From the IMG/VR virus record IMGVR_UViG_2695420343_000003: a DNA stretch of 45,821 bases; one strand, 5' to 3'. Position 1 is the stretch's first letter. Each line of letters begins with the position of its first letter. The notes beneath the pieces were generated by a model. It searched no databases. It was given only the letters and a program-made list of their open reading frames with translations, and was not told the DNA's origin. The translations under genes and the position numbers were made by a program. This DNA comes from a virus (taxonomy: Duplodnaviria > Heunggongvirae > Uroviricota > Caudoviricetes). This document shows, one piece after another, positions 734 to 43,115 of this stretch.

Positions 734-1810
734 TCAGAGCAGTAAGTACGTTTTTTCTCTCTCATCAAGATACATTTTTGTTGTCTTCTCCGATGTGTGG
801 CCAAGTAGACGCTGAGCAAATTCTTCTCCACATGTTTCTTTGTACAATCGTCCAGCCAGACTTCTGATCTCGTGAAAAGTTGGTGGGTTTTCACTGAACT
901 GGATACCTGTTAATTTTCTGGCTGCGACAAATTTTTTTGTCAGGCCATCCGGGTGAATGCTGCCGTCAGGGCTGTTTTTTCTAATCCCGGCACTGATTAG
1001 ATAATCTCCCCGGCTTACCAGGCGGCAGCGTTCAACTACTGTACCAAGCCGTAGACCAGCGACAGGAAGTCTGAGTGACAGGGGGATAGCAATCATCATT
1101 CCTGTCTTAATTTGCCTGATGTGGAGACGATCATCATAAATCTCACTGAACCGCATATTTGTTATGTCTTCGCGACGTTGTCCTGTTACAAGGGCTAAGT
1201 CCATAGCTAATGGGAACCATGTCGGAAGTTGATCTGCTGCCTCCCTGATGCAGTTGTATGTCTTTAGTTTCAGCCGTTCTCTTGTAACTACTATTTTCGG
1301 TGCTCTTGTTGGCGTTACTGGATTTTGAGATATACGTCCTTCAACAATGGCCTCGCGGAACATATCAGATAACACAGAACGCATTGATCCTGCCATCGTG
1401 TTTTTCCCTCCTTCAATCCACAAATCAAGAAACTCGGCAATATGGCGAGTGGTTATTTCTGTCAGTAAAACCCCTCCTAATTTTTCTTTTATTGTCTCCA
1501 GTTGATTTACCCGAATTTTATAAGTATTTCTGGACACTTTTCTCCTTATAAGAATCGTTTTGTAACGTTCAATCCAGTCTGCCATAGTAAATGAGTCGAA
1601 CCCTTTTAGTTTTTCAATTAAGGCAGCAGGAGAGTAGTTTTTGTATATATAATGATTTGCTTCAATTGCCTGCGCTACTGCATCTCTTCTTGAAATTTTA
1701 CCTAGTGTAAATTCTTCTTTCGTCAGAGGGTTGCGCCAGTAATATGCTTTGTCCCTCCTTCGATATGTTAAGTTTTTAGGCAAATTGGGATCGTATTTTT
1801 TCCGCTGCAT
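734..1810 (-). CDS. Phage integrase (tyrosine recombinase, lambda Int family)
   Basis: 358-aa ORF; C-terminal catalytic-domain residues consistent with tyrosine recombinases (…[11 protein letters not shown]…[13 protein letters not shown]); adjacent to att site and overlapped by the xis ORF. Confidence 0.9.
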
Positions 1811-2063
1811 GTTTTAACTTCTCCAGTAACGGACTGTCTCTCCCTTGTCGCCCATTAGGCTGATGGTGTGTTATATCGGTATCAACCTTATTTGGGTTGA
1901 TATAGAAAGCTTCCGGAACCACCCTGTAACTCCTCCCGTGTAGTTCAGGTGCAGGATAAATGTTTCCATTCCTTGCCCATCGTCTCAGCGTTGATATTGA
2001 TGGTGGGTTATCCGGATATCTGAGTTTTCCCCACGTTTTGAGTGTCACAAGATTCATTGCCAT
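1776..2063 (-). CDS. Excisionase (Xis-like)
   Basis: 95-aa basic protein immediately upstream of and overlapping int; motif TLRRWARNGNIYPAP resembles lambda Xis DNA-binding region. Confidence 0.7.
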   Translation of the reverse strand: MAMNLVTLKTWGKLRYPDNPPSISTLRRWARNGNIYPAPELHGRSYRVVPEAFYINPNKVDTDITHHQPNGRQGRDSPLLEKLKHAAEKIRSQFA

Positions 2064-2163
2064 ACCTCTTACGATATGACCGCCAGTAAATATACAGAAT
2101 ACTGGCGGATGTGGTTGATTTTTAATAATCAGCTATGAAGTTCTAATTTGTATATAATGCAAC

Positions 2164-2352
2164 TCACGAGGACAGAAGTTTCTCGCAATTAAAATTTATC
2201 AGCTTTACTTTCTGCTCTCTGGAAACGCCTGCTTCTTTTTTCCCTGAGAGCATTTTTTCGCATTCTGATTTCGTTAATTTAGATTTTGAATATCTTGTCC
2301 AGTTAGTAGGAGTGCCACCTTCCTTTTCAATAGTGGCAGTAATTTTATACAT
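2164..2352 (-). CDS. YdaC-like small protein (DUF1187), hypothetical
   Basis: 62 aa from ATG at 2352 preceded by GGAGG RBS; the track ORF 2164..2421 has an unsupported N-terminal extension; position matches ydaC in Rac. Confidence 0.45.
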   Translation of the reverse strand: MYKITATIEKEGGTPTNWTRYSKSKLTKSECEKMLSGKKEAGVSREQKVKLINFNCEKLLSS

Positions 2353-2539
2353 GAACACCTCCATTATTATTTCCAGTAGTTCGTTTATTCCATCTTTCGA
2401 GTGCTTCTTTTTCACTTCCACTATAGCCGGTTCGGGATTCGCATCCGTTACACTTTGCGCGGTAATATCCTGAAATGGCTTTCACCGTTACTGATGGACA
2501 ACCACAAAACGGACATGGTTTGACTTTTTCATACCGCAT
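2345..2539 (-). CDS. ralR: Restriction alleviation protein Lar/RalR
   Basis: MRYEKVKPCPFCGCPSVTVKAISGYYRAKCNGCESRTGY… matches recalled Rac RalR (Cys4 zinc ribbon); start placed at internal Met. Confidence 0.8.
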   Translation of the reverse strand: MRYEKVKPCPFCGCPSVTVKAISGYYRAKCNGCESRTGYSGSEKEALERWNKRTTGNNNGGVHV

Positions 2540-2602: not shown

Positions 2603-3655
2603 TCAGGAGCCGATATATTCTGGTTTCATATCTGTCAGTGTCGTTTTATACGCCTCATATAATTCTCCCAGATGTGGTCGTGCAGCATTCAGCGTATTTT
2701 CCAGAGCAATAAATTTTTGTTCTGCTTCTGGATCACCTGATGAAGGCAGGTCATTTATCATCGTCTCAATACGGGCAATAGCATTGAGACGGTGATGACG
2801 CTGAACCACTTTTCCTTTAAGTTCTGTGTAGAGAGCGCCAAGTGTATTTTTATGATCTTCCACTTCCTGGCGAAGTGATGTTGTTTCTCCGGTGCTTTGT
2901 GCCTGCTCAATACGTTCACGGAAAGCACTGATCCAGTTTTCCCCGGCATCCTGCTCAATAATTGTTGTTTCACGTTCCGCACGGCAGGCGGATGTATTTT
3001 TATGTTCCTGAACCGGATTAATGATTTTTTCCTGTGGTTCGTCCAGTTCGTCCCGGGTGTACACTCCAAGAATCACTTCAGGGCAATAAAGGCGCGCCCA
3101 GCGTTTCAGTGCCAGATAGGCAAGCTGCTGGCGAGGATCATCGGCCCATAACGTTGAGTTACGTGTTCTGGCCTGCGCCAGAAGTAACTCCAGTACGCGT
3201 GGCTTGCTCTCTCCGCGTAGTGTTGCCTGGACGCGAACTCCGATCCCGTTTTCATCGGCCAGCTTCCAGCCAGGTACACGATATTCTTTCCCCTTGTCGT
3301 TCTTCCTGATTTCAAATTTCCCGATAATTTTTTCCCACGGCCCGAACCAGTCATATTCAATACGCCCGGTTAACGGCCCACGAGTACTGATTACGGCATT
3401 AACCAGTTGCGCTTCATATCCGAGCACACCATTCACAACGAAAGTTTTCTGAGCTACTGCGTAAGGGTTCATTTGCCACTGCATCGCCTGCATGGTGATG
3501 GCCATGCAGTCTGATGGATTTCCCCGGAGGTGTTCCGGTACAGTAGCCATGCCGGAAGCCATTACCTGGGAAAATGTCTGAATTGCAGCCAGGGACTGAG
3601 GGCTGAAAACCGCAACATTAGAGTTAATATTTTCTTGTTGAGTTAATTCGTTCAT
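2603..3655 (-). CDS. Putative single-strand annealing recombinase (RecT-like partner of RecE)
   Basis: 350-aa ORF in the position of recT, directly upstream of recE on the same strand; call is from synteny, sequence differs from K-12 RecT. Confidence 0.5.
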   Translation of the reverse strand: MNELTQQENINSNVAVFSPQSLAAIQTFSQVMASGMATVPEHLRGNPSDCMAITMQAMQWQMNPYAVAQKTFVVNGVLGYEAQLVNAVISTRGPLTGRIEYDWFGPWEKIIGKFEIRKNDKGKEYRVPGWKLADENGIGVRVQATLRGESKPRVLELLLAQARTRNSTLWADDPRQQLAYLALKRWARLYCPEVILGVYTRDELDEPQEKIINPVQEHKNTSACRAERETTIIEQDAGENWISAFRERIEQAQSTGETTSLRQEVEDHKNTLGALYTELKGKVVQRHHRLNAIARIETMINDLPSSGDPEAEQKFIALENTLNAARPHLGELYEAYKTTLTDMKPEYIGS

Positions 3656-3666
3656 TGTGTCCTTCC

Positions 3667-6600
3667 TCAGATGCTCAGTGCTTCAAGACGACGAAGATCA
3701 AAGTCGTTTAATTCGTCGGTATAACTTTCGGTAATCGGTGCTGGCCAGTTGTTTGTCTCCAGAGCTTCGTTTATCTGTCGTAGTGTCCGGCGATATTCCT
3801 GTCGACCAAGTTCCAGGAGTTCCTGCGAGGCTTCCACGACGGCCACCCAGTGATAGCCAGCATCTTTGTTGACGAAGATCCAGAAAAATTTGTCCAGGTT
3901 TGCCACATCGCAATACATTGCTGCGCTGAGGTGATAATCACGTTCAATAATTTCACGGTGCAGGCGATCTTTCAGTCGTTCCTGTCGCACATAACCGAGG
4001 CTGACTGACTTCACGTCGGCGCAAATGCTTTCGTATGGCAGCCGGATTTCGATATCAGGACGGACCCTGATTTCCAGCCCGGTTTCTTCATCAAACCCGA
4101 AATAGCTGATTTCAGATTTGCGATCCGGGTGGTTGAGTAGCCTTGCTGCATCAGTATTGTTTTGCAGTGCTGCGTGAATATTTTTTGCCTGTTCATACAT
4201 ATCCGGACTGATAAACGTTTTTCCGGCGTTTTCTTCTTGCTGGCGTTTTTGCCAGTCCTCCAGTGTTACCAGTTCCGGGCGAATTTTCCGGGCGATTTCG
4301 GTTAATTGCTCTTTTGTGCCACTGATGTTGTAAGGCAAAGATTTAGCACGTTCTTTTTTTGCCAGTTCTGGATCTACAGTTTCAATTTGCTCCAGGAGCT
4401 GCTCTCGTGTTCCACTGGCTTTCAGCAGAGGAGGGAGGCTTGCGTTGTATTCTTTAATACAGGCTTTCATTGCTGATGCTGTGTGTTTTTCCCCCTCAGG
4501 AATACGCCGGAATTCCTCCGGAAGCGAACCGTAAAGGATGCCTGTTTCTTCGGCCCCGGCACTTACCGACAGTGGCTGTATAAGAGTGCTGTTGTAGCTT
4601 TCGATCCACTCTTTCATCTGCTCTGGTGTCATCAGTGCTGGCAGACTGGCATTGTGTTTTTTAATGATGGCGATCAGTTCGTTAGAAGTAGTAACCACAT
4701 ATTCAGGAACCGGTACCGGAATGGCATACTCATCAGCGAATTTATCCGTTTCCAGAACATAGCTGTGAATAATCCGCCCACGCAGCAATGCATCACTTTC
4801 CTCGCCCGGAATAGTTCCGGCAATGTGCCGTCCGTGGTAATACATCAGGCTGATGCGGGCATCCTTCAGCATTGTGCTGCTTATTCCGTTGGCGGAGTGA
4901 TAAACCTCGTTCGGGAGGTTTTCATAGCGGCCAGGCTCGAAATATGACGGCCACATGATTTCAGTTACTACAGGTGCTGTCGTTTCACCAGCTTCATCAC
5001 TGCAATCGCAATGCGGATTGCTGCCAGCGTTCTCCTTGTGCGGATGTTCAGCACCTTCCATTTCCTCCAGACCTTTTTCCTGATATTCATTCTGATTTTC
5101 TTCATTAAAGGTTTTCTGATACGTTGCGTCGCCCATCACCGCGCCACAGTCAGGACAGTTGCCGCCGCCAGCCTTACCGCAGGCGGTGCAAACTTTCTCC
5201 GTTTCCTGTTGTTGCACTACTGGCTCAGGCTGTTTCGTTTCTGGCTCGTTTTGTTGCGTATTTGGGTCGTTCTGTTCCGTTTCTGGCTGATTCTGGTACA
5301 CAGAATCGCGGGTCTGGATCCCCTTAACCCATTTCGGATCATTCGGGTCGCTAATCCCTTCAACAAATTCTCCGCGAGAGGCAGCCAGTAATTTGTCTGC
5401 ATCGACAGGATTTTTGGGCGGAATGTTTTTCCGGGCTTCATAGAGTTCTGCCCGCAGTTTCTGATATTTCGCATCAACAGAATTTACCTGTGACTGAGCA
5501 TCCAGCGGCTGCGTGTCCTGATGATGTTCAGTTGCATCCGGTTCCACTGTTTCAGCCGTTGCCTGTTCATCTGCCATTGCGCAAGATGGTTGCAGTTTTT
5601 CTTCATCATCCTGTTTTTCTTCTTCTGTTACACGCTGCGGCATCGGGGCAGAGGAACGACCGCAGGCAATATCCACGATTTCTGGATCAGGGTTGGCATG
5701 ATCAGTTTCAGTCAGTACTTTGTTAAGATATTCAGTGACGTGTGCGGGGATAACCTCGATCCCAATTGGTGCTTCTTTTACGGACGCAACCACGATGGCG
5801 CGGGAATAATCCAGCCCGCCAGGCATGGTGATGAATTTGTCGCGGAAAACAGAAAAGGGCGGTTTATTTTCAGCGATAATTTCCTCGACACGTTTAGCGT
5901 GTGCCGGATGAAGGTTATAAATGTCCACGTCCATTGAACGAGCCAGTACGCCAGTGGCTACGTCGCGCGCCAGTGACGTCAGATCGTGAACGAAACCTTC
6001 GCCGCGATCGGTGAGGTTCCCGCCGCCAGCATTAGCGCCGGAAGCCGTGCGCGTGATGCGTGAAACACGATTTCCTTTCATCCACTCTTTTGTCAGCAGA
6101 CCGCGATCGGTGTAGTCTGCGTCCAGGTATGCTTCGAAAAAAGCAGTCATCAGCCCCAGGCTTGAATTGCCTGGATTAGGGAAAACTCTGTCAGTATCAC
6201 GCACCAGTTTATGGAGATCGCGAATTTCCAGCGGGTCGAGCAGGCTGGTTTTGTGGGAAACAGCCAGGGCAGTAACAGCTGGTAGTTCTTCAGCCCGTGC
6301 AATGTGTAATGCCTGGAGTCCGTCGCGTGAAACGTGCGTTACCGGTTTTTCGCTGCCGTGTTGAGCAGGCCAGCGAATGGGCAGCTCCTGACCGGAAATC
6401 GGGAGTAGCATATTCTCCTCAATCTCCGTCATGTCTTCGCCATTAACATTGGTATTGTCAGTGCTGGCTGGTTTGTCCTGCGCAGAGGATGAGGGCGCGA
6501 TAAATACCATTGTGATGCCATCTTCCCCGCCTTTTTCGTAACGGTTGCAGAATTCCGTATCAAATACGCCCTCTGGTGGAAGGTCATCAACAACGGGCAA

Positions 6601-6795
6601 ATTGACGCGAACAGGTTTTTTAAAGTCATCTTCATCGTAGCCAGCATCGTCAATCGCAACAGCACCACGGGATATGGCAATGGATAATTTTTTCGCTTCA
6701 GCCCAGTAGAAACCGCCTTTAATACCGAGACGTTTTCTTACTTTGTCATTTTTTGCTTCGTAATACAGTGGGTAAACTTGTTTATCGGTGCTCAT
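3667..6795 (-). CDS. recE: Exodeoxyribonuclease VIII (RecE)
   Basis: 1042-aa ORF with long identical stretches to recalled Rac RecE ([29 protein letters not shown]…, [29 protein letters not shown]). Confidence 0.9.
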
Positions 6796-6923: not shown

Positions 6924-7169
6924 TCAGAGTTGCCAGAAATTCGGCTTTTTTTCTGCGGGCAGATTCTTTCCTATGTGCACCAGACACATTTTTTTAACAC
7001 CATCGTTAAGTGTTTTAACGTTGCCTGATGGACCGTCGATATCAACCACAGTGAATGGGGTTTCTTTATTTTCTGTCTTAATCACGTAGCCAATACGCTT
7101 TCCTTCCAGGGTAACTTCGTGAACAATGTCATCAGTAGTAACAACAGTGGCTTCATAACTGGTAATCAT
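6924..7169 (-). CDS. racC: RacC-like protein
   Basis: MITSYEATVVTTDDIVHEVTLEGKRIGYVIKTENKETPFTVVDIDGPSGNVKTL… matches recalled RacC; start at internal Met with AAGGAG RBS. Confidence 0.7.
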   Translation of the reverse strand: MITSYEATVVTTDDIVHEVTLEGKRIGYVIKTENKETPFTVVDIDGPSGNVKTLNDGVKKMCLVHIGKNLPAEKKPNFWQL

Positions 7170-7243
7170 GTTTTTCTCCTTAATTAAGGTTGAGTGAATC
7201 CCTGCCATTGCTGGCATAAATTCAGTTTCGGATAGTCAGTTAA

Positions 7244-7414
7244 TTAAAGTTCGTGTGCCATCTGGTCTTTTTCGGCACAGATTTCACTACAATATTTTTT
7301 CATTTCCGTCGTTGGTATAACTCCACGCATGAAATGAAGTGGTCTTGTAATGATTTTGCTTTCTTCAATTTCTTTATTGCAAAGGTGATAAGCACATTTT
7401 ATTTTCTTAGTCAT
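7244..7414 (-). CDS. ydaE: YdaE-like zinc-binding small protein (56 aa)
   Basis: Translated by hand (below the 60-aa ORF track cutoff): [56 protein letters not shown]; start ATG overlaps kilR stop (TAATG). Confidence 0.7.
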   Translation of the reverse strand: MTKKIKCAYHLCNKEIEESKIITRPLHFMRGVIPTTEMKKYCSEICAEKDQMAHEL

Positions 7415-7635
7415 TACCATGACTCCGCCTTTACAGGTAAACCATCACGACCGAGGAAGACTTTAATCATGCAGTCAGAAATGCATGTTTTTGTAGTCAG
7501 GCTACGAATATAAAGTTTTCGCTTTTTAATATTGTTTGCCGAGGCGATATACGTCCGGCCTTCATGAAGAACATAATCGCCAGGGGTCACACACTGACGT
7601 GGTATTTCATCAGTTCCGAAGTGATGAGCAATCAT
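7414..7635 (-). CDS. kilR: KilR (FtsZ-targeting cell division inhibitor)
   Basis: [49 protein letters not shown]… matches recalled Rac KilR; start at second Met with GGAG RBS. Confidence 0.8.
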
Positions 7636-8059
7636 AATTATCTCCATTTTTACAAATGAATTTTGTCGATGCGGTGCCTGGTGCCTCCAGGTGACGTTAA
7701 CCAGTTAACAATTAACGCCGGATAATCCACCCATAACACTGATGCTTTTAACTGTTCCGCGTGCGCTTAGCCGCATTCACCGCATCACAAAATTCACTTT
7801 AAAAAGGGGCGGCAGGGCAGCCACGGAGTAGAACTGATGCCGCCAAAGACTACACAAAGCAATGTCGTTATTTACAACCGGAGGCGCACTCCCACCATTT
7901 AAATTTAACAGACAAGACCGACTCTTTATGGATACCGGAAATGCGCCTTCGTGTTGTGCCCGGTTTTATTTCACCACCTCCGGGCTTTGGTGGTATCTTT
8001 ACTGGAGTTCTCACACAACCAGTAAGGAAATGAATATGCCAACGTATCTCGCCAGAGTA

Positions 8060-8067
8060 GAACTATA
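8060..8067. repeat. IS1 target-site duplication, left copy (gaactata); right copy at 8836..8843
   Basis: Identical 8-bp direct repeat immediately flanking both IS1 ends. Confidence 0.75.
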
Positions 8068-8082
8068 GGTAATGACTCCAAC

Positions 8083-8586
8083 TTATTGATAGTGTTTTAT
8101 GTTCAGATAATGCCCGATGACTTTGTCATGCAGCTCCACCGATTTTGAGAACGACAGCGACTTCCGTCCCAGCCGTGCCAGGTGCTGCCTCAGATTCAGG
8201 TTATGCCGCTCAATTCGCTGCGTATATCGCTTGCTGATTACGTGCAGCTTTCCCTTCAGGCGGGATTCATACAGCGGCCAGCCATCCGTCATCCATATCA
8301 CCACGTCAAAGGGTGACAGCAGGCTCATAAGACGCCCCAGCGTCGCCATAGTGCGTTCACCGAATACGTGCGCAACAACCGTCTTCCGGAGCCTGTCATA
8401 CGCGTAAAACAGCCAGCGCTGGCGCGATTTAGCCCCGACGTATCCCCACTGTTCGTCCATTTCCGCGCAGACGATGACGTCACTGCCCGGCTGTATGCGC
8501 GAGGTTACCGACTGCGGCCTGAGTTTTTTAAATGGCGGAAAATCGTGTTGAGGCCAACGCCCATAATGCGGGCGGTTGCCCGGCAT
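8083..8586 (-). CDS. insB: IS1 transposase InsB
   Basis: 167-aa ORF matching recalled InsB ([30 protein letters not shown]…). Confidence 0.9.
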
Positions 8587-9282: not shown

Positions 9283-9283
9283 T

Positions 9284-9690: not shown

Positions 9691-9714
9691 AAAAAAGCCC
9701 GCTGATAGCGGGCT
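9691..9714 (-). terminator. Rho-independent terminator after the repressor gene
   Basis: Minus-strand reading gives hairpin agcccgctatcagcgggct followed by TTTTTT. Confidence 0.55.
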
Positions 9715-9744
9715 GATTGGCATATTACTGTGATAGCAAGATCA

Positions 9745-10164: not shown

Positions 10165-10175
10165 TGCATCCTTGT

Positions 10176-33432: not shown

Positions 33433-35401
33433 AGATTTCCTTGTCTCGCTTGGCTTCAGTGTGGATGATGCAGGAGCGAAAAAATTCGGTTCTGTCCTCG
33501 CCGGTACAACTGCAAATGTCATCAAAATGGGGCTGGCCGTCGAAGGAGCGGCGCTGTCCGTGGTGGCCTTCACGGCTAAGATCGCCTCCGGCCTGGATAA
33601 TCTTTACTGGGCGTCACAGCGCACCGGCGCGACAGTCCAGGGAATTCAGTCTATTGGCTATGCGGTTTCGCAGGTTGGCGGCAGCGTGGACGCTGCGCGA
33701 TCTTCTCTGGAAAACCTCTCCCGGTTTATTCGTAATAATCCCGGGGCGGAGGGATTTCTGAATCGTCTGGGGGTACAGACACGGGATGCCAGCGGTAACA
33801 TGCGTGACATGGCCGCTATTTTTACAGGGGTAGGCCAGAAGCTCAGCGACATGCCGTATTACCGTGCTAACCAGTATGCGCAGATGCTGGGCATTGACGA
33901 AAATACCCTGTTGGCTATGCGTCGCGGTGTGGGTGGCTTCTCCGGGCAGTACAGCGCAATGGCGAAAGCTATCGGCTTCAATGCTGACGAGGCGGCCAGA
34001 AGCTCCAACAAATTTATGACCTCCCTGCGTGAGTTTGGCGCGATGGCAGGCATGGCCCGTGACAAAATCGGCTCTAATCTTGCGGGTGGGCTTGCGGGTT
34101 CGCTGGACACACTGCGCCGCCATATCCTGGACAACTTCCCGCGTATCGAGCAGACCCTGACGAAAGCCATAAAAGGCATTCTGGCGCTCGGGGATATTAT
34201 CGGGCGGCTGTTCTTCAGACTGATTGAGGGGACATCAGGCCTCATCACCTGGTGGCAATCGCTGGATAAGCAAACGCGGGAGTTGATCTCGCTGTTTGGC
34301 GCACTGACGATTGCGCTGCGCATTCTGAACAGTACGTTCTGGATGTCGCCGATTGGCCTCATTACCGCGCTGGCGGCGGGGATTGCCCTCCTGTGGGAGG
34401 ACTATCAGACCTGGAAGGAAGGCGGCGACAGCCTGATTGACTGGGGCAAGTGGAAACCGGAGGTTGATGCCGCGCTGAAGATGGTTCGTGACCTTAAAAC
34501 GACCGTTAACGACCTGGTGAAAGCGCTGGCGAAACTGCTCAATATTGACCCCAAATCATGGTCCCTGAAGTGGGATTTCAGCAACTTCATCGACCAGATG
34601 GGCGAATTCAGCAAAATGCTGAACATGATCGCCGACCTGCTCAACGCTATCAAAGATGGCCGCTGGGCTGATGCCGTCAGCATCGGCAAACAGATACTTA
34701 ATCAGGGCAGCGAAAATCCGTCAGCGATGCCGATGGTTACAGACAGCGCTAACAGTACTGCCGACTGGATTAAAGAGCACTGGGGATTTGATCCCCGCAG
34801 TGTGGGCCGGACGGTACGCGGCTGGTTTGGTGATGATGAGCCGGAACAACATGCACAGGCTACGAAACGAGGAGAACGGAATAACAATCCGGGAAACCTT
34901 AATTTTGCTGGTCAGGCAGGGGCTTCTCTTGAACGCCCGGGCGGGCGATTTGCCAGATTTGAAACTGCCTTTGATGGATTACGGGCTCTTGCTCGTCAGT
35001 TAATGCTGTACGCCGGACGGGGAATAAACAGTGTGGAGAAAATTATCTCTACCTGGGCACCTGCGTCTGATAATAACAACACAACTGCGTATATCAGGGC
35101 TGTATCGCAACGACTGGGAGTGGATCCCCGGGCTGCCCTGAATATGAGCGATCCGCAAACCATGTCAGCATTGATGAGCAGCATTATCCAGCATGAGAAT
35201 GGAAGAAATATCTATTCTCGGGAGCTGATTAATAAGGCTGCCGTGGCGGGAATTAGTGGCAAAGTGACAGAGGTTAACCAGCAAAATACCTACCACATTT
35301 ACGGTGGCGGAGATCCGCACGCTGTCGGTAATGAGGTTGCACGTCGGCAACAGTCTGCAAATGCTCAGGTCATGCGAAGTAATCAGGTGAGGGTGGGTTA
35401 G
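33413..35401 (+). CDS. Tail tape measure protein
   Basis: ~662 aa from ATG with GGAGAGAGG RBS; Gly/Ala-rich helical regions; position after chaperone frameshift. Confidence 0.8.
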   Translation: MNAETIKDFLVSLGFSVDDAGAKKFGSVLAGTTANVIKMGLAVEGAALSVVAFTAKIASGLDNLYWASQRTGATVQGIQSIGYAVSQVGGSVDAARSSLENLSRFIRNNPGAEGFLNRLGVQTRDASGNMRDMAAIFTGVGQKLSDMPYYRANQYAQMLGIDENTLLAMRRGVGGFSGQYSAMAKAIGFNADEAARSSNKFMTSLREFGAMAGMARDKIGSNLAGGLAGSLDTLRRHILDNFPRIEQTLTKAIKGILALGDIIGRLFFRLIEGTSGLITWWQSLDKQTRELISLFGALTIALRILNSTFWMSPIGLITALAAGIALLWEDYQTWKEGGDSLIDWGKWKPEVDAALKMVRDLKTTVNDLVKALAKLLNIDPKSWSLKWDFSNFIDQMGEFSKMLNMIADLLNAIKDGRWADAVSIGKQILNQGSENPSAMPMVTDSANSTADWIKEHWGFDPRSVGRTVRGWFGDDEPEQHAQATKRGERNNNPGNLNFAGQAGASLERPGGRFARFETAFDGLRALARQLMLYAGRGINSVEKIISTWAPASDNNNTTAYIRAVSQRLGVDPRAALNMSDPQTMSALMSSIIQHENGRNIYSRELINKAAVAGISGKVTEVNQQNTYHIYGGGDPHAVGNEVARRQQSANAQVMRSNQVRVG

Positions 35402-35988
35402 TGGATATTCTCTCTACACTTTTTCATCAGCAGAGCAGAAAAATAGGAATGATTGTTCCCAGTGTTGTTATTTCAGAGAAGCATACAGATATGCTTGAAA
35501 TAACAGAGCATCCGGTAGAGGTTGGGGCCGCTGTCGCTGATCATGCCTATAAAAAACCGTCAGAAGTGGTGATGGAGGTTGGTTTCGCCGGTGGCGGCGC
35601 ATTGCTGGATTTTGCCAGTAATCTGACGGCTACCAGCCTGCTCGGCCTGAGTCCTCAGCAGACGTATCAGGAGCTACTGGATCTGCAGGAAAGCCGTATC
35701 CCCTTCGATGTGGTAACCGGTAAACGACTGTACAGCAACATGTTGATCCGGGCGCTGGAAGTGACGACGGACAAGACAACCGAAAACGTCCTGTCCGCCG
35801 TCCTCACCCTGAGGGAGGTCCTTATCTCCCGGACACAGCAGATTACCGTCGCGGATAAAACCAACATGAAGGAAGGGGCCAGCACGTCGGCGGTACAGAA
35901 TAGCGGCAACAAAACCACAAAGCCTCCAGATACTTCACTGCTGAAAAGCATCACGGGTAACGTGGCGTCATTACTGGGGGGCGGCTAA
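35401..35988 (+). CDS. Tail protein (hypothetical)
   Basis: GTG start overlapping TMP stop (TAGTG); 195 aa. Confidence 0.45.
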   Translation: MDILSTLFHQQSRKIGMIVPSVVISEKHTDMLEITEHPVEVGAAVADHAYKKPSEVVMEVGFAGGGALLDFASNLTATSLLGLSPQQTYQELLDLQESRIPFDVVTGKRLYSNMLIRALEVTTDKTTENVLSAVLTLREVLISRTQQITVADKTNMKEGASTSAVQNSGNKTTKPPDTSLLKSITGNVASLLGGG

Positions 35989-36290
35989 TGACAATTCAGG
36001 AAATTCCGCTGACAGCGGACAACCAGCAGTTCAGCATCGTCTTAGGTGGTGTTACTTGGCGGATTAGCATCATATGGCGCGATCTGTACTGGATTATGGA
36101 CCTGCAGAACGACAGAGGGGAGCCGGTAATCTCCGGTATTCCTCTCGTCACTGGTGCCGACCTGCTGGCGCAGTACGCCTGTATGGGGCTTGGTTTTAAG
36201 CTGGTGGTGGTCTGTGATGACAACACACAGGATTACCCCACAAAAACTGACCTGGGCGGTCGCAGCCATTTACTGGTATCAACGGAGTAA
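35988..36290 (+). CDS. Tail protein (hypothetical)
   Basis: TAATG-coupled; 100 aa. Confidence 0.45.
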   Translation: MTIQEIPLTADNQQFSIVLGGVTWRISIIWRDLYWIMDLQNDRGEPVISGIPLVTGADLLAQYACMGLGFKLVVVCDDNTQDYPTKTDLGGRSHLLVSTE

Positions 36291-36292
36291 GC

Positions 36293-37357
36293 ATGTCACA
36301 GAACTGGATGAGACATTTCGAGCTGCAGCTTGTGGACGAGAACGGTCAGGGAATTGAGCTAAGTGATTTTAAAGTTACCTTTACGATCGACTGGTTCAAC
36401 ATCAGCAGTGCATCCCGGGTAGGGACTATCAAAATTTATAACCTCTCGGCAGATACTGTGAACCGAATCACCGGACAGGAGTTTTCGAAAGTGCGTCTGA
36501 TTGCGGGTTACGACGGTATCGCGCCGGAGGTGTCGGCAAGCGACGTCGGGACAGTGCGGGAAGTTGACGCGGCGGACGTGGGCCAGAGTGATGGCCGCAA
36601 CTACGGACTGATTTTCAGCGGTGAAATTCGCTACTCGGTCACAGGAAAAGACAGTCCGGTTGATACCTACGTCCTGATTCAGGCAGCAGATACTGATCTG
36701 GCTTTTGCTACCAGTATAACCTCACAGACGCTGGCTGCCGGTTACACGGTCGCTAATGTGAACCGTGCGCTGATGAAAGACTTCGAAGCCAAAGGCGCGA
36801 CCGAAGGCCTGACGCCTGAAATGCCTGCTACTGTATTCCCCCGGGGGCGGGTACTCTTTGGCATGACGCGGCATCTAATGGATAACGTAGCCGGACAATG
36901 TGGCGCAACATGGCAATTCGTGGACGGTCAGCGCCAGATGGTGGCGAATAACGAATATGTTCACGAAGCGATTGTGCTCAACAGCGCTACCGGGCTTATT
37001 GGAATGCCGCAGCAGACTATCGGTAACGGCGTAAACGTCCGCGCGCTTATTAATCCGAACATCCGGGTTAACGGGCTCATTCAGCTGGATCAGGCTTCCG
37101 TCTATCGTACCGCGTTGTCGAACAACGATATTGCGATGGCTGGTGGTCAGATCACCGACCAGAACACGGACGGAAATATCACGCTCAGCGGCACCACATC
37201 GCAGCCTGCCAGCATCGCAACGGATGGCGTTTATATTGTGCGCGGGATTATGTACACTGGCGACACAAGAGGCCAGGCCTGGTACATGGATATGATGTGC
37301 GAAGCGCGCGGTGCGCAGGATATGCCATCCAGCACTGCTTTGCAGAGAGGATTATAG
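36293..37357 (+). CDS. Tail/baseplate hub-like protein
   Basis: 354 aa between TMP-distal genes and baseplate genes. Confidence 0.5.
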   Translation: MSQNWMRHFELQLVDENGQGIELSDFKVTFTIDWFNISSASRVGTIKIYNLSADTVNRITGQEFSKVRLIAGYDGIAPEVSASDVGTVREVDAADVGQSDGRNYGLIFSGEIRYSVTGKDSPVDTYVLIQAADTDLAFATSITSQTLAAGYTVANVNRALMKDFEAKGATEGLTPEMPATVFPRGRVLFGMTRHLMDNVAGQCGATWQFVDGQRQMVANNEYVHEAIVLNSATGLIGMPQQTIGNGVNVRALINPNIRVNGLIQLDQASVYRTALSNNDIAMAGGQITDQNTDGNITLSGTTSQPASIATDGVYIVRGIMYTGDTRGQAWYMDMMCEARGAQDMPSSTALQRGL

Positions 37358-37359
37358 AA

Positions 37360-37710
37360 ATGAAACGATGGATATTTTCATTGCTGGCGTTAGTGTCTGT
37401 TGGTGTAAGTGCAAACACCATAACGATGCAATGCGGTAACTTTCGTATGGATGCGATCCCTGACTCATTATTTAAAATCAATGGCGAAACAGTAACGTCC
37501 CAAAAAGTAAAAATGTTGGGTAAAGACGGTACAGGCATGCAGATCAAAATGGGGCTGATGCCTGCCAAAGATGGCCACAATTATGGGTTCGAGTATATCC
37601 ATCTACCAGGCACCGAAACGCGATTCCTGAGCGTCCAGCTTCTGCAAAACAGCATGGATGCGCCGAAAATCATCGGATCATTCCCTTGTAAAAAAGTGGC
37701 TGGGCGATGA
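37360..37710 (+). CDS. Secreted small protein (signal peptide), moron
   Basis: ATG 2 nt after upstream stop, AGAGAGGA RBS; MKRWIFSLLALVSVGVSA signal peptide; followed by AT-rich intergenic region. Confidence 0.5.
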   Translation: MKRWIFSLLALVSVGVSANTITMQCGNFRMDAIPDSLFKINGETVTSQKVKMLGKDGTGMQIKMGLMPAKDGHNYGFEYIHLPGTETRFLSVQLLQNSMDAPKIIGSFPCKKVAGR

Positions 37711-37875
37711 TTTTTGACGTCCATAATATTATGGATGAACTGTTGCCAATTGCGCTAATTTTAACAAAATAATACTGGTTAACGCATTTTTTGAACCATC
37801 TGTACACAGTAGTTGTCTATACTTTACCTTAAAGGTAAACTCTGCGCTCCACTGATGTTCACTATGGGAGGGGAT

Positions 37876-38115
37876 ATGAGGAAAATCGTTAACCGTTACT
37901 TAGCCGCTGCCGGTAGTGTTATGGACATTATGCCGACTACAGATTACTGGCAATATGCTGCTTCTGGATCTGATTGTCGGGCAATAAGAAGTGATGTTAA
38001 AGTCATTGCAAGTGACATGAACAGAGTTATCAGGTATGAGTTCAAAACCCCGCAAGCAGGCGGCCGTTCTCAAAAAGCATCAGGAAAACAAAGCGTCGCA
38101 AAAAGCCGTTCCTGA
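37876..38115 (+). CDS. Hypothetical small protein (79 aa)
   Basis: ATG preceded by GGGAGGGG; overlaps the next ORF by 80 nt in another frame. Confidence 0.35.
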   Translation: MRKIVNRYLAAAGSVMDIMPTTDYWQYAASGSDCRAIRSDVKVIASDMNRVIRYEFKTPQAGGRSQKASGKQSVAKSRS

Positions 38116-38608
38116 TTCGGATGGTATCGACGAAGCTATTGATTCCTCGGAATATGATGAGTCTCAGGAAGTAGTGGAAAAGCTGTCTGCAGTTGCCAAC
38201 CTTGATCCTGAGCTAAAATCGAAGTTAACACCTGAACTTCTTGAGAGAGTTTCTAAGAACCCGAAGGTTATTGCCATGTTTCAGCAGGAGTCTTTTCAGG
38301 GACCACTCCCACCTCCTGCTATGCTCTTACAATATAATCAAATATTACCCGGCGGCGCTGAGAGAATTTTCAGGCTAACCGAAAAAGAGCAAGAGCATAG
38401 GCATAAGACGCAAAGTGATGCATTACTTGGTGCGGTTTCACGCGACAAACGTGGGCAATGGATGGGATTTTGCATTGCAATGGTAGTGCTTATAATGGCT
38501 GCGTTTTTTGCTAATCGCGGTAACACTTGGTTCGCAGGTACTCTTGCTACTTTAGATCTCGTAGGATTAACTACAGTGTTTGTTTATGGTAGGAAGAAAC
38601 CTAAATAA
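38036..38608 (+). CDS. Predicted membrane protein (DUF2335-like), moron
   Basis: 190 aa; acidic N-terminal half, conserved-looking segment PLPPPAMLLQYNQILPGGAERIFRL, two C-terminal TM helices; followed by terminator. Confidence 0.5.
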   Translation: MSSKPRKQAAVLKKHQENKASQKAVPDSDGIDEAIDSSEYDESQEVVEKLSAVANLDPELKSKLTPELLERVSKNPKVIAMFQQESFQGPLPPPAMLLQYNQILPGGAERIFRLTEKEQEHRHKTQSDALLGAVSRDKRGQWMGFCIAMVVLIMAAFFANRGNTWFAGTLATLDLVGLTTVFVYGRKKPK

Positions 38609-38623
38609 TCCATACATCCTTTC

Positions 38624-38647
38624 AAACCCGCTTCGGCGGGTTTTTTG
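38624..38647 (+). terminator. Rho-independent terminator closing the tail-embedded moron unit
   Basis: cccgcttcggcggg + TTTTTT. Confidence 0.65.
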
Positions 38648-38665
38648 CTTTCTGGAGCCTACTAA

Positions 38666-39418
38666 ATGGCCGTATCTGACCAGACCCGCAGCGGCGACCT
38701 TGCCGAAACATTCAAATCTGAACGGGAAACAACAAAGAACCAGATCCGTGTCGCCTTGCCTGGCATTATTCAGTCATTCGATCCTGATGCGGTGACGGCA
38801 GTTGTGCAGCCTGCTATCCGTTCGGTTGAAAAGGATAATGACGGCAACCGCATTACCCAAAATTACCCATTGCTGGTGGATGTGCCAGTGGTATTCCCGC
38901 GCGGTGGAGGATGCACGCTAACGTTCCCAGTTAAAGCCGGTGATGAATGTTTGATGATTTTTGCCGATCGTTGTATTGATTTCTGGTGGCAGAACGGCGG
39001 GATACAGGAGCCTGTTGATGACAGAATGCATGATTTATCGGATGCGTTTTGTATTGTCGGTCCCCAGTCGCAGGCTAGGAAGATTAGCGGTATTAATACC
39101 AGTGCCACACAGTTGCGTAGTGACGATGGCAGCACCTATTTTGAGCTTAATCCTGATACCGGGAAAATTAAAATTGTCGCTCCGGGTGGTCTTGATGTGG
39201 TTGCCCCTCTGGCTGATTTTTCTGAGAAAGTAACCATTCATGGCCTGTTAACCTGGATGGGAGGCATGGTGGGGTCTGTTGTTTCTGGTGTGGCTTCAAA
39301 AATCACTGGTGCTGTTGAGTTTTTGGGTAGCGTGAAGGCTAACGGCAAGCCAATCGATGATACGCACACTCATGGTGGTGTTCAGCGCGGTGGAAGCAAT
39401 ACCGACGGAGTAAACTGA
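38666..39418 (+). CDS. Baseplate spike / assembly protein (gpV-like)
   Basis: 250 aa at start of baseplate cluster; Gly-rich C-terminus. Confidence 0.5.
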   Translation: MAVSDQTRSGDLAETFKSERETTKNQIRVALPGIIQSFDPDAVTAVVQPAIRSVEKDNDGNRITQNYPLLVDVPVVFPRGGGCTLTFPVKAGDECLMIFADRCIDFWWQNGGIQEPVDDRMHDLSDAFCIVGPQSQARKISGINTSATQLRSDDGSTYFELNPDTGKIKIVAPGGLDVVAPLADFSEKVTIHGLLTWMGGMVGSVVSGVASKITGAVEFLGSVKANGKPIDDTHTHGGVQRGGSNTDGVN

Positions 39419-39771
39419 TGCGATACAGACGTGAAGACGCCGATGGCGATTACACCTTTGGCAGCGGTGATGACACCTGGCTGATTAACTCACCGGAGGC
39501 CGTGGCGCAGGCGGTAAAAACGCGATTCGAATTGTGGTATGGGCAATGGTTTCTCGACACCACCGAGGGGACTCCGTGGATCCAGTCCGTACTCGGTAAG
39601 CAGAAGCCGGAAACCTACAACCTGGCGATCCGTAAGCGCATCCTCGAAACGCGGGGCGTTAAATCAATTCTCTCTTTCAATACGACGGTGGATACCACGA
39701 CCCGACGTGTCATGTTTTCCGCTGAAATCGACACTCTTTATGGAATAACGACTGTTACATCGGAGGCGTAA
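39418..39771 (+). CDS. Baseplate protein (gpW/gp25-like)
   Basis: 117 aa, coupled between spike and J-like genes. Confidence 0.5.
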   Translation: MRYRREDADGDYTFGSGDDTWLINSPEAVAQAVKTRFELWYGQWFLDTTEGTPWIQSVLGKQKPETYNLAIRKRILETRGVKSILSFNTTVDTTTRRVMFSAEIDTLYGITTVTSEA

Positions 39772-40970
39772 TGGCTCTGAACCTTGATTCTCTCGGTTTA
39801 TCTGCAAAGGTAACCGCGGAGGGGATCAGTGCGCCTGATTATCAGACGATACTCAGCACCCTGATTAGCTATTTTCAGCAGATTTATGGCAGTGATGCCT
39901 ACCTCGAACCGGACAGCAAAGACGGTCAGATGATGGCTCTGATGGCGCTGGCGATTCATGATGCCAATAATACGGCGATAACTGTCTACAACTGTTTTTC
40001 ACCGGCAACCGGCTATGGGGCTGCACTGACCAGTAACGTGAAAATAAATGGTATTTCACGTAAAGGCGCGACGAACTCTACGGTTGATTTGCTTCTTACA
40101 GGAACTGCAGGAACAACCATCATTAATGGCAGCGTGAAAGACAGTAATAATGTGATATGGCGTTTGCCTGCTTCAGTGGTGGTCGGCGTGGATGGTACAG
40201 TGATGGCGACCGCAACATGTTCTGTCAGTGGTGCAGTGGCGGCGCTGGCTGGAACTATCACTGAAATTAATACGCCAACCCGTGGCTGGGTTTCGGTAAC
40301 CAATCCTGCTGCAGCTACTGTGGGCACTCCGGCAGAAACTGATGCGGAGTTACGTATCCGCCAGTCGCAAAGTGTTGCGTTGCCATCAATAACCCCATTT
40401 GAAGCACTGGATGGTGCTGTTTCTAATGTTACAGGTGTAACCCGCCACAAACTCTATGAAAACGATACTGGTTCGGAGGACGGTAACGGGTTACCGCCAC
40501 ACTCTGTTGCTGTGATTGTGGATGGCGGTGATGTGACGGATATTGCTCAGGCTATCAGAGGGAATAAAGGTCAGGGGACAGCCACTCACGGTACAACATC
40601 CGTTACGGTTCCGGATAAATACGGCAATCCCCATGTAATCAAGTTCTCGCGTTCCAGTGATGTACCTGTTTATGCCCGGATCAAATTAAAAGTTTTTACG
40701 GGTTATACCTCACAGATAGGGCAGCAGATCCAGCAGGCTATTTCCGACTATATCAATAGTCTGATGATTGGTGATTCGGTCCTTTTAAATCGCATTTACT
40801 CACCGGCGAATCTTGGCGTGGTGAGTGGCGGGAATGCACGCTATTACGATATTCAGGAACTGACGATTGGGAAATCCCCGGGGGCTTTGTCGTCATCAAA
40901 CATTGATATCAGATACAACGAACATGCGTCCTGTACCCCGGAAAATATCGTTATAACGGTGGAGTCATGA
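39771..40970 (+). CDS. Baseplate J-like protein
   Basis: 399 aa in canonical V-W-J-I-fibre order. Confidence 0.65.
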   Translation: MALNLDSLGLSAKVTAEGISAPDYQTILSTLISYFQQIYGSDAYLEPDSKDGQMMALMALAIHDANNTAITVYNCFSPATGYGAALTSNVKINGISRKGATNSTVDLLLTGTAGTTIINGSVKDSNNVIWRLPASVVVGVDGTVMATATCSVSGAVAALAGTITEINTPTRGWVSVTNPAAATVGTPAETDAELRIRQSQSVALPSITPFEALDGAVSNVTGVTRHKLYENDTGSEDGNGLPPHSVAVIVDGGDVTDIAQAIRGNKGQGTATHGTTSVTVPDKYGNPHVIKFSRSSDVPVYARIKLKVFTGYTSQIGQQIQQAISDYINSLMIGDSVLLNRIYSPANLGVVSGGNARYYDIQELTIGKSPGALSSSNIDIRYNEHASCTPENIVITVES

Positions 40971-41647
40971 GCAAATACACCGAACTAATCACGAACAACC
41001 ACGCCACCAAACCTAAATTTCTTGCACATGTTGATCTGATGACCCGGCCGCTTATTGATGTTGCGGCTGCCACCAGAGGGCTGATTACTGCATTTGATAT
41101 TGACTCTGCGGTTGGTGTGCAACTTGACATTCTTGGATTGTGGATCGGACGTAGCCGTGTTGTCAGCCAGCCTATCTCAGGTGTCTATTTCAGCTGGGAT
41201 ACCGACGGGCTTGGATATGATCAGGGGGTATGGCAGGGACCATACGATCCTGATTCAGGATACATGTATCTCAGCGATGAAACTTATCGTGTCATTCTTA
41301 AAGCGAAGATTGCGATTAATAACTGGGACGGACGGAATGATTCGCTTCCGGCAATTCTTGACGCGGCAACAGCAGGATCCGGGCTGCGAATGCAGATAGT
41401 CGATAACCAGGACATGACGATATCGGTCTGGGTCTTTCCTGATACTGATATTTCAGATGTATCGCGTGAGTTAATTGCGGCAATTAAACAGGGGTATCTC
41501 ACAGTAAAAGCCGCCGGGGTATGGGCGGGTGGCATTGAAACACCTTCGGTGGAAACCCCATCGGAAGGCTCAAAATTTTTTGGTTTTGATATGGATAACG
41601 AATTCATCAGTGGTTTTGATGTAGGAGCATGGGGAGTATTACTCTGA
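40967..41647 (+). CDS. Baseplate/tail protein (gpI-like)
   Basis: 226 aa; ATGA overlap with J-like gene. Confidence 0.5.
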
Positions 41648-42501
41648 TGGCGAAAAATGACTTTAAAGCGTTTGCAACGGATCGAAATGCCAATGTTATA
41701 TCGCAGGAGGAATGGGAAGCGTTGCCCGCGCTTTTATCTGGATTTACAGCAGGGAAAGCCTCCAGTGCGCAAGTCAATAAGGTTATTCGGCAGGCCAGCT
41801 TTATTGCTGCAGCTCTGGCCCAGTTTGTAAGTGATAAAACGCAACGGGATGTGCTTGATAATGGTGATCTGCCCGGTTTTGTTGAATTGCTGGGATCGGG
41901 GTTTGCTGTTGAATACCTGAGCCGCAAGAATCCGTTTGGTGATATCAAATCGGATGGCACGGTGGAAACGGCTCTCGAAAACCTTGGTTTGGGGGAAGGC
42001 TCTGCATTGCCTGTTGGTGTACCGGTTCCGTGGCCCACCGCCACACCGCCAGCAGGCTGGTTAAAGTGCGACGGGCGCGCCTTTACAAAAGAACAATATC
42101 CTGTTCTGGCCAGAGTCTACCCGACCCTCCGTCTTCCCGATTTGCGCGGTGAGTTTATCCGTGGATGGGACGACGGGCGCAAAGTTGATACAGGACGTAA
42201 GTTGCTGTCCGCACAAGGGGCAACGCTGTTAAGAACAGCAATGCTGGATTATTATAACCAGGACACTACGGGAACCTCGGGGATAGTCGGCATGGGATTC
42301 AACAATGAAGATTCCATTACAGACCTTCGTGAGGGCAGCTTTAAAATGCCGGACGGGACAACATTCAGCGATCCTGTCATAGCAATGTCAGACAATGGTA
42401 TGCAGGCTACTATTCTGACCTCTATCAGAAGCGGGTATGCGAAGGGTATCACTGTCAGACCCCGTAGCATTGCACTTAATTACATTGTGAGGGCAGTTTA
42501 A
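41647..42501 (+). CDS. Tail fibre protein (constant N-terminus + variable C-terminus Sv)
   Basis: Tail-collar-like segment …[65 protein letters not shown]…; alternative start 41629. Confidence 0.75.
41973..41998. repeat. Invertase crossover-like site (left), gix/pix-like
   Basis: Reverse complement ttcccccaaaccaaggttttcgagag; inverted partner ttcccccaaaccaacgtttatgaaaa at 43575..43600; bounds ~210-bp inverted homology (41986..42195 vs 43381..43590). Confidence 0.55.
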
Positions 42502-43115
42502 TGAGTAACACTGCAGTTCTGGATGAAAACGGTATCGCCACTGTAGCGGGCGATATCACTGTATATCACTATGACGAGGAAACCCGGGAATACACCTCAT
42601 CCTCTGTGGAGTATCTCGCCCTTGGGGTGGGTACTCCGGCACATTCGTGCGCCGATGCACCGCCGGAGGCAATTTCGGGTTACGTGGTTTGCCGGACTGC
42701 CACGCTGAACGGGTGGGAGCATGTGCCTGATCACCGCGGCGAGACGGTATACAGCACGGAGAACGGTAACCCCGTTCTGATTACCCAACCGGGTGATTAC
42801 CCGGCGGACACCACCACAAAACAGCCTGCCACACCATGGGATACCTGGAACGGTGAAGCGTGGGTAACTGATACTGAACGGCATAGAGCCGCAGAGCTGG
42901 AGACTGCCAGACTGCAACGCCAGAAACGGGTGGATCAGGCGATGAAGTCCATCGACCTCATCAACCTCAAACTGCGGGCAGGTCGCAGTCTGAAACCAGA
43001 AGAAACGGCAAAACTGAACGCCGTGCTGGATTATATCGACGAGCTGAACGCACTGGATATCAGCAAGGCACCTGAAATCAGCTGGCCGGAAGCGCCACTG
43101 GCGCTTGCCGGCTGA
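42501..43115 (+). CDS. Tail fibre assembly protein (Tfa)
   Basis: 204 aa immediately after fibre gene (TAATG overlap); C-terminal region typical of Tfa chaperones. Confidence 0.7.
   Translation: MSNTAVLDENGIATVAGDITVYHYDEETREYTSSSVEYLALGVGTPAHSCADAPPEAISGYVVCRTATLNGWEHVPDHRGETVYSTENGNPVLITQPGDYPADTTTKQPATPWDTWNGEAWVTDTERHRAAELETARLQRQKRVDQAMKSIDLINLKLRAGRSLKPEETAKLNAVLDYIDELNALDISKAPEISWPEAPLALAG

Follow-up and report, generated by a model that had tools for sequence, protein, structure and literature searches.

A probable mosaic lambdoid prophage in the sdsR terminator of Escherichia coli, with Rac-type early genes and a SEN34-type contractile-tail module

The 45,821-nucleotide (nt) stretch of DNA held as IMG/VR record IMGVR_UViG_2695420343_000003 (hereafter the window) very probably contains a single temperate lambdoid prophage, integrated in the terminator of the small RNA (sRNA) gene sdsR on an Escherichia coli chromosome and built from modules of different affinity; this degree of confidence concerns identity and modular architecture and leaves inducibility aside. 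In the interpretation we favor, a lambda/HK022-type integrase would have used site-specific recombination to insert the element into the final ~30 bp of sdsR, its terminator, with the phage supplying a replacement terminator. Six modules would make up the element: an integrase, excisionase, and attachment (att) site that are not of Rac type; a Rac-type early-left operon (ydaF, DicF, kilR, ydaE, racC, recE, recT, ralR/RalA, and rcbA); a DicA-like repressor and cro-like switch distinct from RacR/YdaS; a Rac-type replication and nin-like block reaching up to a Q-type antiterminator; a lambda-family holin and lambda R-type transglycosylase with non-lambda spanins; and SEN34-type packaging, head, and contractile-tail genes with an invertible fiber segment. 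The gene order (int, xis, recombination, immunity, replication, nin, Q, lysis, virion) is lambdoid throughout, and GC content shifts by module, from 41-51% in the early region and 33-38% in the cargo to 50-57% in the virion genes. These shifts, a single integrase, and an att core found exactly twice agree with the initial annotation, which described the region as one mosaic genome.

Aligning the empty K-12 site to both ends of the window placed the prophage at about 604-44755 (about 44.15 kb), in E. coli chromosomal DNA between yebY (1-342, left flank) and pphA (44886-45545, right flank, followed by yebW). The span first proposed, 734-43115, was correct for its outermost open reading frames (ORFs; int at 734-1810 on the minus strand to tfa at 42501-43115) but fell short of the full extent. 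The SdsR gene (503-602, plus strand) overlaps the SraC/RyeA sRNA gene (462-606, minus strand) immediately left of the insertion. A 32-bp core is duplicated at the two ends of the prophage, bases 666-697 of the reversed K-12 empty site matching both 572-603 (attL) and 44724-44755 (attR). This core, CAGGAATCGT(A/G)TTCGGTCT, is present exactly twice in the window, compared to 0.01 copies expected by chance. It corresponds to the sdsR terminator: the attL copy now ends sdsR and carries two phage-derived substitutions relative to K-12, with predicted hairpin stability unchanged at -15.8 kcal/mol, while the attR copy is K-12-like and adjoins the displaced promoter side of ryeA and pphA. The passages of PMC7380047 and PMC3603311 that cite Balbontin 2008 give the last ~23 bp of ryeB/sdsR, internal to ryeA, as the att site of the Salmonella phage PhiW104. 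The element described here resembles PhiW104 in integrating in the sdsR 3' end, as at each end of the prophage the duplicated core falls within the final ~23-30 bp of sdsR. Literature searches returned nothing specific on an E. coli prophage at sdsR/yebY.

The integrase responsible is a 358-amino-acid (aa) tyrosine recombinase of the lambda/HK022 type with Phage_integrase, Phage_int_M, and Arm-DNA-bind_1 domains in Pfam. It is 41% identical to HK022 Int and 98% identical to the integrase of a prophage in O55:H7 strain DEC5E. The overlapping lambda-type excisionase gene (1776-2063, minus strand; Pfam Exc, E = 6.5e-14) encodes a protein 100% identical to DEC5E Xis. When K-12 Rac and lambda proteins were searched against the window by tblastn, neither IntR nor XisR gave a match at E<1e-3. 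Thus, int and xis, which had been read as part of a Rac gene order, share their position with the Rac genes but not their ancestry; Rac uses an IntR-type integrase, together with XisR, for integration at ttcA, whereas this element sits at sdsR. Tandem CCCGAAATT(C/T) repeats lie just inside attL (638-657, plus strand), with one copy inside attR (44585-44594). Exact copies of CCCGAAATTT occur only twice in the 45.8 kb, at 648 and 44585, respectively 45 bp inward from attL and 140 bp inward from attR. Their placement and the arm-binding domain of Int fit a role as candidate arm-type Int binding sites. Also inside attL, by ~70 bp, the sequence GTATTCCGGTCTTTTTT (672-690) looks like the 3' half of the core (GTATTCGGTCTTTTTTT) lengthened by one base, and could be an additional core-type site or a relic.

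The nearest known relative is the DEC5E prophage (NZ_CP038383.1, about 3.045-3.087 Mb). It occupies the same yebY/sdsR-pphA site and shares int and xis (98-100% aa identity), the repressor (100%), the replication genes, the lysis cassette, and the SEN34-type virion module (95-100%), such that nearly every gene is 95-100% identical. It differs in lacking IS1, in having an intact pinE and two tfa genes, and in diverging in the middle of recE, the fiber tip, and several moron loci. Prophages of FDAARGOS_1289 and OkiPb01690 show the same architecture at the same site with further module swaps, including in OkiPb01690 the replacement of part of recET by Gam-Bet-Exo. Intergenomic similarity, computed in the manner of VIRIDIC and read against the 70% ICTV genus line, is 78% to DEC5E, 72% to OkiPb01690, 43% to vB_EcoM-606R2, 34% to SEN34, 16% to Rac-SA53, and 15% to K-12 Rac. 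The comparison that the initial annotation had proposed, with Rac and with other prophages at the sdsR site, thus sets the element far from Rac and close to the DEC5E prophage. A search of 5426 complete E. coli genomes found the int/xis pair in 228 (~4%) and the sheath-tube-chaperone block in 363.

The virion module is collinear with that of the Salmonella phage SEN34 (Brunovirus SEN34, NC_028699), with which the element also shares overall lambdoid order. From terL onward, 24 of the 27 SEN34 virion genes have full-length collinear counterparts at 65-96% aa identity, and the fiber matches over its N-terminal 90 residues only. The module opens with terS, terL, a portal protein (DUF1073), a MuF-like protein, a DUF2213 protease/scaffold, a cement-like protein, and the major capsid protein (21967-28932, plus strand, as are all genes to tfa; Pfam and PHROGs). 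Pfam assigns the small subunit to Terminase_2 and the capsid protein to PF09950, and with the exception of terS the packaging and head proteins are 79-95% identical to SEN34 over their full length. Next come five head-tail connector or neck genes (28973-31179; PHROGs; 76-96% aa to SEN34), followed by sheath (DUF3383), tube (KPP10_Orf10), chaperone (TAC_15), and tape measure genes (31183-35401; Pfam; 65-93%). The baseplate region (35401-41647; Pfam and PHROGs; collinear with SEN34) encodes a Dit-like protein, a Pam3 gp18-type plug, the hub, a spike with a GpV apex motif, a W-like wedge, Baseplate_J, and a DUF2612 protein. Between hub and spike is a variable moron locus (37360-38608), here holding a phrog_3443 gene, a small ORF, and a gene for a DUF2335 membrane protein (a moron according to PHROGs); its content differs in each of DEC5E, SEN34, AVS0196, and OkiPb01690. 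Pfam, PHROGs, and SEN34 collinearity therefore agree on the order first read from the sequence (terS, terL, portal, and MuF-like through sheath, tube, chaperone, tape measure, and baseplate to fiber and tfa). The same reading held that this contractile-tail module is unlike that of lambda or Rac, and it has no significant match in the K-12 Rac remnant or in Rac-SA53, apart from a weak baseplate-J match at 27%, the only Rac-SA53 virion protein to match the window.

SEN34 is a temperate, mitomycin-inducible, and plaque-forming phage with myovirus morphology by electron microscopy, and its authors describe lambda-like early genes and a contractile tail (PMC5261728). It differs from our element in terS, integrase, recombination genes (exo/RecT/Gam rather than RecE/RecT), immunity, O/P replication genes, and endolysin. 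Thus, the element carries a virion module of SEN34 type while its overall similarity, about 34%, is below the 70% or more expected within Brunovirus. At the nucleotide level the virion module is 96.6-96.7% identical to vB_EcoM-606R2, -611R5, and -683R1 (ON470579, ON470588, and ON470593), the alignments covering 73% of the window's late half, and vB_EcoM-683R1 is among the top database matches of the window. The early region of 606R2 (DNA polymerase, helicase, and a different repressor) and its integration locus differ from those described here. A literature search found no paper on vB_EcoM-606R2. The urinary E. coli phage 923, whose nearest neighbor is vB_EcoM-683R1, was induced and imaged as a myovirus (PMC12945033). 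SEN34-type virion modules can therefore build infectious myoviruses, as shown for SEN34 and phage 923 (PMC5261728, PMC12945033); the sheath, tube, and baseplate genes, together with the micrographs of these two phages, suggest that any particle of this prophage would have the same morphology, the head being expected at ~55 nm and the contractile tail at ~110-150 nm by analogy with SEN34.

In contrast to the integration genes, the early-left operon is clearly of Rac type. The set rcbA, ralR/RalA, recT, recE, racC, ydaE, and kilR is present in Rac order, and across the early region eleven genes are 67-96% identical to K-12 Rac with their order kept. In this operon, rcbA/ydaC and the ralR toxin gene (2167-2539, minus strand) encode proteins 94 and 95% identical to K-12 Rac, with the RalA antisense sRNA on the plus strand (2168-2346; Rfam RalA, 223.8 bits). 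Next are a RecT-family recombinase (350 aa) and RecE (1042 aa; 2603-6795, minus strand; Pfam RecT, Exonuc_VIII, and DUF3799). RecE is 67% identical to K-12 over recE residues 11-734 and 29% over the C-terminal nuclease part, while RecE and RecT are 81 and 63% identical to those of Rac-SA53. By sequence comparison, then, the RecE N-terminus is Rac-like, and the RecE C-terminal nuclease domain and RecT are of Rac-SA53 rather than K-12 type. Further upstream, all on the minus strand, are a frameshifted racC-like gene, ydaE, and kilR (6924-7647; 91, 73, and 94.5% aa identity to K-12 Rac), a DicF-family sRNA directly upstream of kilR (7807-7858; Rfam DicF, 63.5 bits against a gathering score of 48), and a ydaF-like gene (9284-9502; Pfam DUF1391; 88% aa to K-12 YdaF), the first recognizable gene of the operon. 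That a DicF-like RNA accompanies kilR, the gene for an FtsZ inhibitor, parallels dicF-dicB of Qin. No DicF in K-12 Rac reaches the Rfam threshold; the corresponding K-12 stretch is annotated kilS (9406-9503 of the Rac record) and aligns well except for the terminator stem, a comparison that shows kilS as a diverged homolog of DicF at the sequence level. K-12 RecT, SieB, YdaG, RacR, and YdaS had no tblastn match in the window. Therefore, of the claim that the left arm reproduces Rac gene order, rcbA/ydaC, ralR, recE, racC, ydaE, kilR, ydaT, and the ydaU- and ydaV-like genes stand, int and xis agree in position only, and the gene at the recT position is not matched by K-12 RecT.

To the right of the immunity region the replication block (10500-13772, plus strand; tblastn against K-12 Rac, and Pfam) is also of Rac type and comprises ydaT, a ydaU-like initiator, ydaV (a DnaC/IstB-like ATPase), ydaW/DUF1627, and DUF977. 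Identity to K-12 Rac is 95% for ydaT, 96% for ydaV, 95% for ydaW, and 85% for the C-terminal half of ydaU. The N-terminal half of the YdaU-like protein (11000-11788) is unrelated to Rac and has no Pfam match, a replacement that recalls the origin-specificity swaps of lambda O-type initiators. The immunity region itself (9745-10503) is not a RacR/YdaS pair. It encodes a 139-aa DicA-like helix-turn-helix repressor (9745-10164, minus strand; Pfam HTH_3 only, with the NCBIfam DicA subfamily below cut-off) that is 100% identical to the DEC5E repressor, and a divergent cro-like helix-turn-helix protein (10261-10503, plus strand). Palindromes of the form AACAC-N5-GTGTT at 9647 and 10222 are a hint of operators, at a count not above chance. 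A promoter and terminator scan of 7600-10600 showed no enrichment, and its sole convincing terminator follows the repressor gene. Loss of repression would be expected to start divergent early transcription, after which Q would activate a late operon of lysis and virion genes, and Xis and Int would presumably act at the sdsR core to excise the element.

The late control region contains DUF1367, YbcO-like nuclease, and DUF1133 Q-type late antiterminator genes (17559-18987, plus strand; Pfam), whose products are 74-92% identical to those of Rac-SA53 irsA, ybcO, and q. The assignment of the antiterminator, which lies upstream of the lysis genes, comes from its sequence (DUF1133, 6e-108; Phage_antitermQ, 27.6 bits against a cut-off of 26). 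The lysis cassette (19825-21185, plus strand; TIGR01594, tblastn, and Pfam LysC/DUF2570) encodes a lambda-family holin, an R-type endolysin, a DUF2570 inner-membrane spanin, and a LysC-type outer-membrane spanin. Over all 158 aa, the endolysin (20170-20646) shares 87.3% identity with lambda R, in keeping with its initial description as essentially lambda R. The cassette as a whole had been called lambda-like, which fits the endolysin and, by family, the holin (TIGR01594, E = 4.6e-41); the holin is nevertheless just 26% identical to lambda S, and lambda Rz/Rz1 have no tblastn match in the window. More generally, the element resembles lambda in gene order, in an Int family with an arm-binding domain, in R, and in the hidden Markov model family of the holin, and differs from it in having a contractile tail, a repressor without S24, and no nucleotide similarity in the compared late-region segment apart from R.

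The prophage bears several lesions, and the expectation that it looks complete holds in part: att sites, int, xis, and the lysis and virion genes are uninterrupted, whereas an IS1 insertion, an invertase remnant, a single tfa, and a racC frameshift mark the regulatory and early operons and the fiber segment. An 8-bp target duplication, GAACTATA, borders the IS1 copy (768 bp; 8068-8835, minus strand; Pfam DDE_Tnp_IS1) on both sides. Within the early-left operon, the insertion separates the repressor/ydaF end from DicF, kilR, recET, xis, and int. It interrupts a plus-strand ORF of 98 aa (8030-8067 and 8836-9102) that, when rejoined, matches phrog_8894; a second, intact phrog_8894 gene is present at about 19329-19610 on the minus strand. 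As the IS1 junction was found in none of the 5426 genomes, the insertion is recent. At the right end, the Pin/Gin-type invertase gene is reduced to 31-32 codons (43656-43750, plus strand; matching PinE residues 1-31 only); 672 bp of unrelated DNA (43748-44419), with a 62-aa acidic ORF (44041-44229), takes the place of the rest. This truncation occurs in only two of the genomes, OkiPb01676 and OkiPb01690, where it is annotated as a pseudogene. The fiber segment on which the invertase would act comprises the tail fiber gene (41629-42501; Pfam Collar), tfa (Pfam Caudo_TAP), and an inverted alternative fiber C-terminus (43122-43628, minus strand), bounded by 231-nt inverted repeats (41979-42209 and 43363-43593) that are 92% complementary. 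It has one tfa, compared to two opposed tfa genes in DEC5E, AVS0196, and OkiPb01676. Because pin is truncated, the fiber segment should be locked unless another Pin/Gin homolog acts in trans. Finally, the racC homolog (6924-7217, minus strand) matches K-12 and DEC5E RacC to residue 79 and has its last 18 residues in another frame, which indicates a 3' frameshift near codon 79; the OkiPb01690 copy is likewise annotated as frameshifted. Inactivating mutations in structural genes, which the initial annotation had named as a ground for rejecting its proposal, were not seen, as the lysis, packaging, head, and tail genes are full-length compared to their relatives. As far as can be read from the sequence, every gene known to be needed for the proposed cycle is intact, and the damage so far lies in accessory parts.

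We considered whether the element could instead be a true full-length Rac, that is, an undegraded member of the K-12 Rac lineage at another site. The eleven early genes with their shared order and the nin and Q region in common with Rac-SA53 speak for this view, and Rac-SA53 (KU052037) shares RecT, DUF1367, ybcO, and Q with the window beyond the common Rac early genes. However, no similarity to the Rac counterparts was seen for the integrase, excisionase, att site, repressor, or cro, and nucleotide alignment to K-12 Rac covers 5.4 kb (about 13% of the element, at 76-94%), well short of the about 70% or more intergenomic similarity expected within a genus. Rac itself differs in its ttcA site, in RacR/YdaS (K-12) or DicA/DicC (SA53) immunity, and in a virion module, that of Rac-SA53, that is unrelated to the one described here. 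In addition, a phage record, PP818812, has the closest integrase among phage records (97.8%) and the same early region joined to a Rac-SA53-type virion module, from which we conclude that these modules reassort freely. The module comparison thus already points outside the ttcA-integrated Rac clade for most genes, and we regard a true Rac as improbable. The term Rac-relative, used at first, applies to the shared early genes and overstates the relationship of the whole. Even less credible is an artefact, in which two adjacent prophages or an assembly chimera would meet between the lysis cassette and terS; both GC content and affinity to database sequences do shift between about 20.6 and 22.3 kb, but the lysis-to-terS junction and the layout recur in the independent complete genomes DEC5E, AVS0196, and OkiPb01690. 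This recurrence, a single integrase, and att cores confined to the outer ends led us to reject both tandem prophages and a chimera, leaving a mosaic lambdoid prophage as the interpretation pursued here.

A separate possibility is that the prophage is grounded and only recently defective, with IS1 terminating early-left transcription before kilR, recET, xis, and int, such that excision or normal yield would be lost while the late genes remain intact. IS1 is classically polar, and polarity can be overridden by antitermination, as classical work on lambda N established. The clean 8-bp duplication and the position of the recent IS1 agree with this scenario, as do the pin remnant, the absent second tfa, and the racC frameshift as other marks of decay. 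Several observations weigh against the interpretation we favor: IS1 separates the presumed early-left promoter from kilR through xis and int; no N-like antiterminator was recognized among the small ORFs downstream of the repressor; Pfam found no S24 peptidase domain in the 139-aa repressor; no CTGT-N8-ACAG LexA box is present in the window (nor in DEC5E, OkiPb01690, or Rac); the exact mosaic was not found in any complete genome, the best coverage being 77% for 1-22000 and 87% for 21900-45821; and its 44.15 kb exceeds DEC5E (about 41.8 kb), OkiPb01690 (about 41.7 kb), and SEN34 (40.7 kb) by 2-3.4 kb, extra length that could matter if packaging is headful. With neither a RecA-cleavable cI/LexA-like repressor nor a LexA-controlled antirepressor, the SOS wiring expected of a classical inducible phage is not apparent. 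The missing LexA box is not decisive, since mitomycin-inducible SEN34 has a single one, located just upstream of dinI. Moreover, the only ORF that IS1 breaks is a small accessory one on the opposite strand, with a paralog in the element, int and xis are intact and could conceivably have their own promoter, antitermination could override polarity, and the essential genes are all full-length. We therefore consider grounding a real but minority possibility, at around one chance in three. Inducibility is favored by intact att sites, int, xis, switch, replication genes, Q, lysis, and virion genes, and by viable relatives; overall, the chances that the prophage still yields infectious particles appear roughly even.

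Between DUF977 and a hok-like type I toxin gene (16845-17000, plus strand; 96% aa to DEC5E HokD) the element carries low-GC cargo that encodes a 5-methylcytosine DNA methyltransferase (354 aa) and an OLD-family ABC-ATPase/Toprim-like protein (609 aa; 13806-16699, minus strand; Pfam, PADLOC, and NCBIfam). IIVED and LLDGD motifs of Toprim type can be read in the 609-aa protein, which has weak PDB matches to OLD, AriA, and PtuA, best PADLOC matches to HEC-04 and ATPase-Toprim_I-B, and the RefSeq name "ATP-dependent nuclease." From these features the pair looks like a candidate methylation-guarded nuclease defense pair. It is present in 32 of the complete E. coli genomes; at the same hot spot DEC5E instead encodes "beta family" and "sce7726" proteins.

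A few further features can be noted. Between the spanins and terS, orf153 (21489-21950, minus strand, 153 aa) had no match in Pfam, PADLOC, NCBIfam, or PHROGs, and AVS0196 has a different opposite-strand ORF there, so the position looks like a moron slot. In the same four databases, ORFs at 19080-19368 and 9079-9291 and the acidic ORF in the right-end replacement had either no match or matches only to PHROG families of unknown function. The record PP818812.1 is named "Actinobacillus phage vB_Apl-pPE4" and credited to Actinobacillus pleuropneumoniae; its sequence shows 94-98% identity to that of Rac-type E. coli prophages, and it carries an sdsR-type integrase and has a virion layout that corresponds gene for gene to the Rac-SA53 annotation. 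Its Actinobacillus host attribution looks doubtful, and a literature search found no paper on this phage.

The site of integration raises the question of an effect on the host. In K-12, pphA is transcribed mostly by read-through from the sdsR promoter, and the ryeA promoter holds sdsR down through transcriptional interference and through antisense pairing (PMC6610125). The ryeA start is 38 nt past the sdsR 3' end in K-12 coordinates, and the prophage places 44 kb between the ryeA promoter and pphA (attR side) and sdsR and the RyeA body (attL side). It is tempting, at somewhat below even odds, to view a prophage in the sdsR terminator as a lysogenic-conversion switch for SdsR, RyeA, and pphA. 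If so, lysogens, including the ~4% of E. coli genomes that bear this integrase, would be expected to have more SdsR, little native RyeA, and less pphA. An effect on SdsR/RyeA/pphA is reported for PhiW104 in Salmonella, in what PMC7380047/PMC3603311 relate citing Balbontin 2008, and our literature search found no test of it in E. coli.

Overall, the element is an ordinary mosaic lambdoid prophage from a population that has already been sequenced many times and partly characterized, and it matters little alone. It is a clear example of module reassortment among enterobacterial temperate phages. What it illustrates is the extent of exchange: one Rac-type early region with an sdsR-specific integrase is joined to at least two unrelated virion modules, and one virion module of SEN34 type occurs together with at least three different early regions. 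For such elements, the label "Rac" should be avoided when it is based on recET and kilR matches alone. The DUF977-hok hot spot is a carrier of a candidate defense pair, and prophage insertion at the sdsR site may affect an sRNA circuit of the host.

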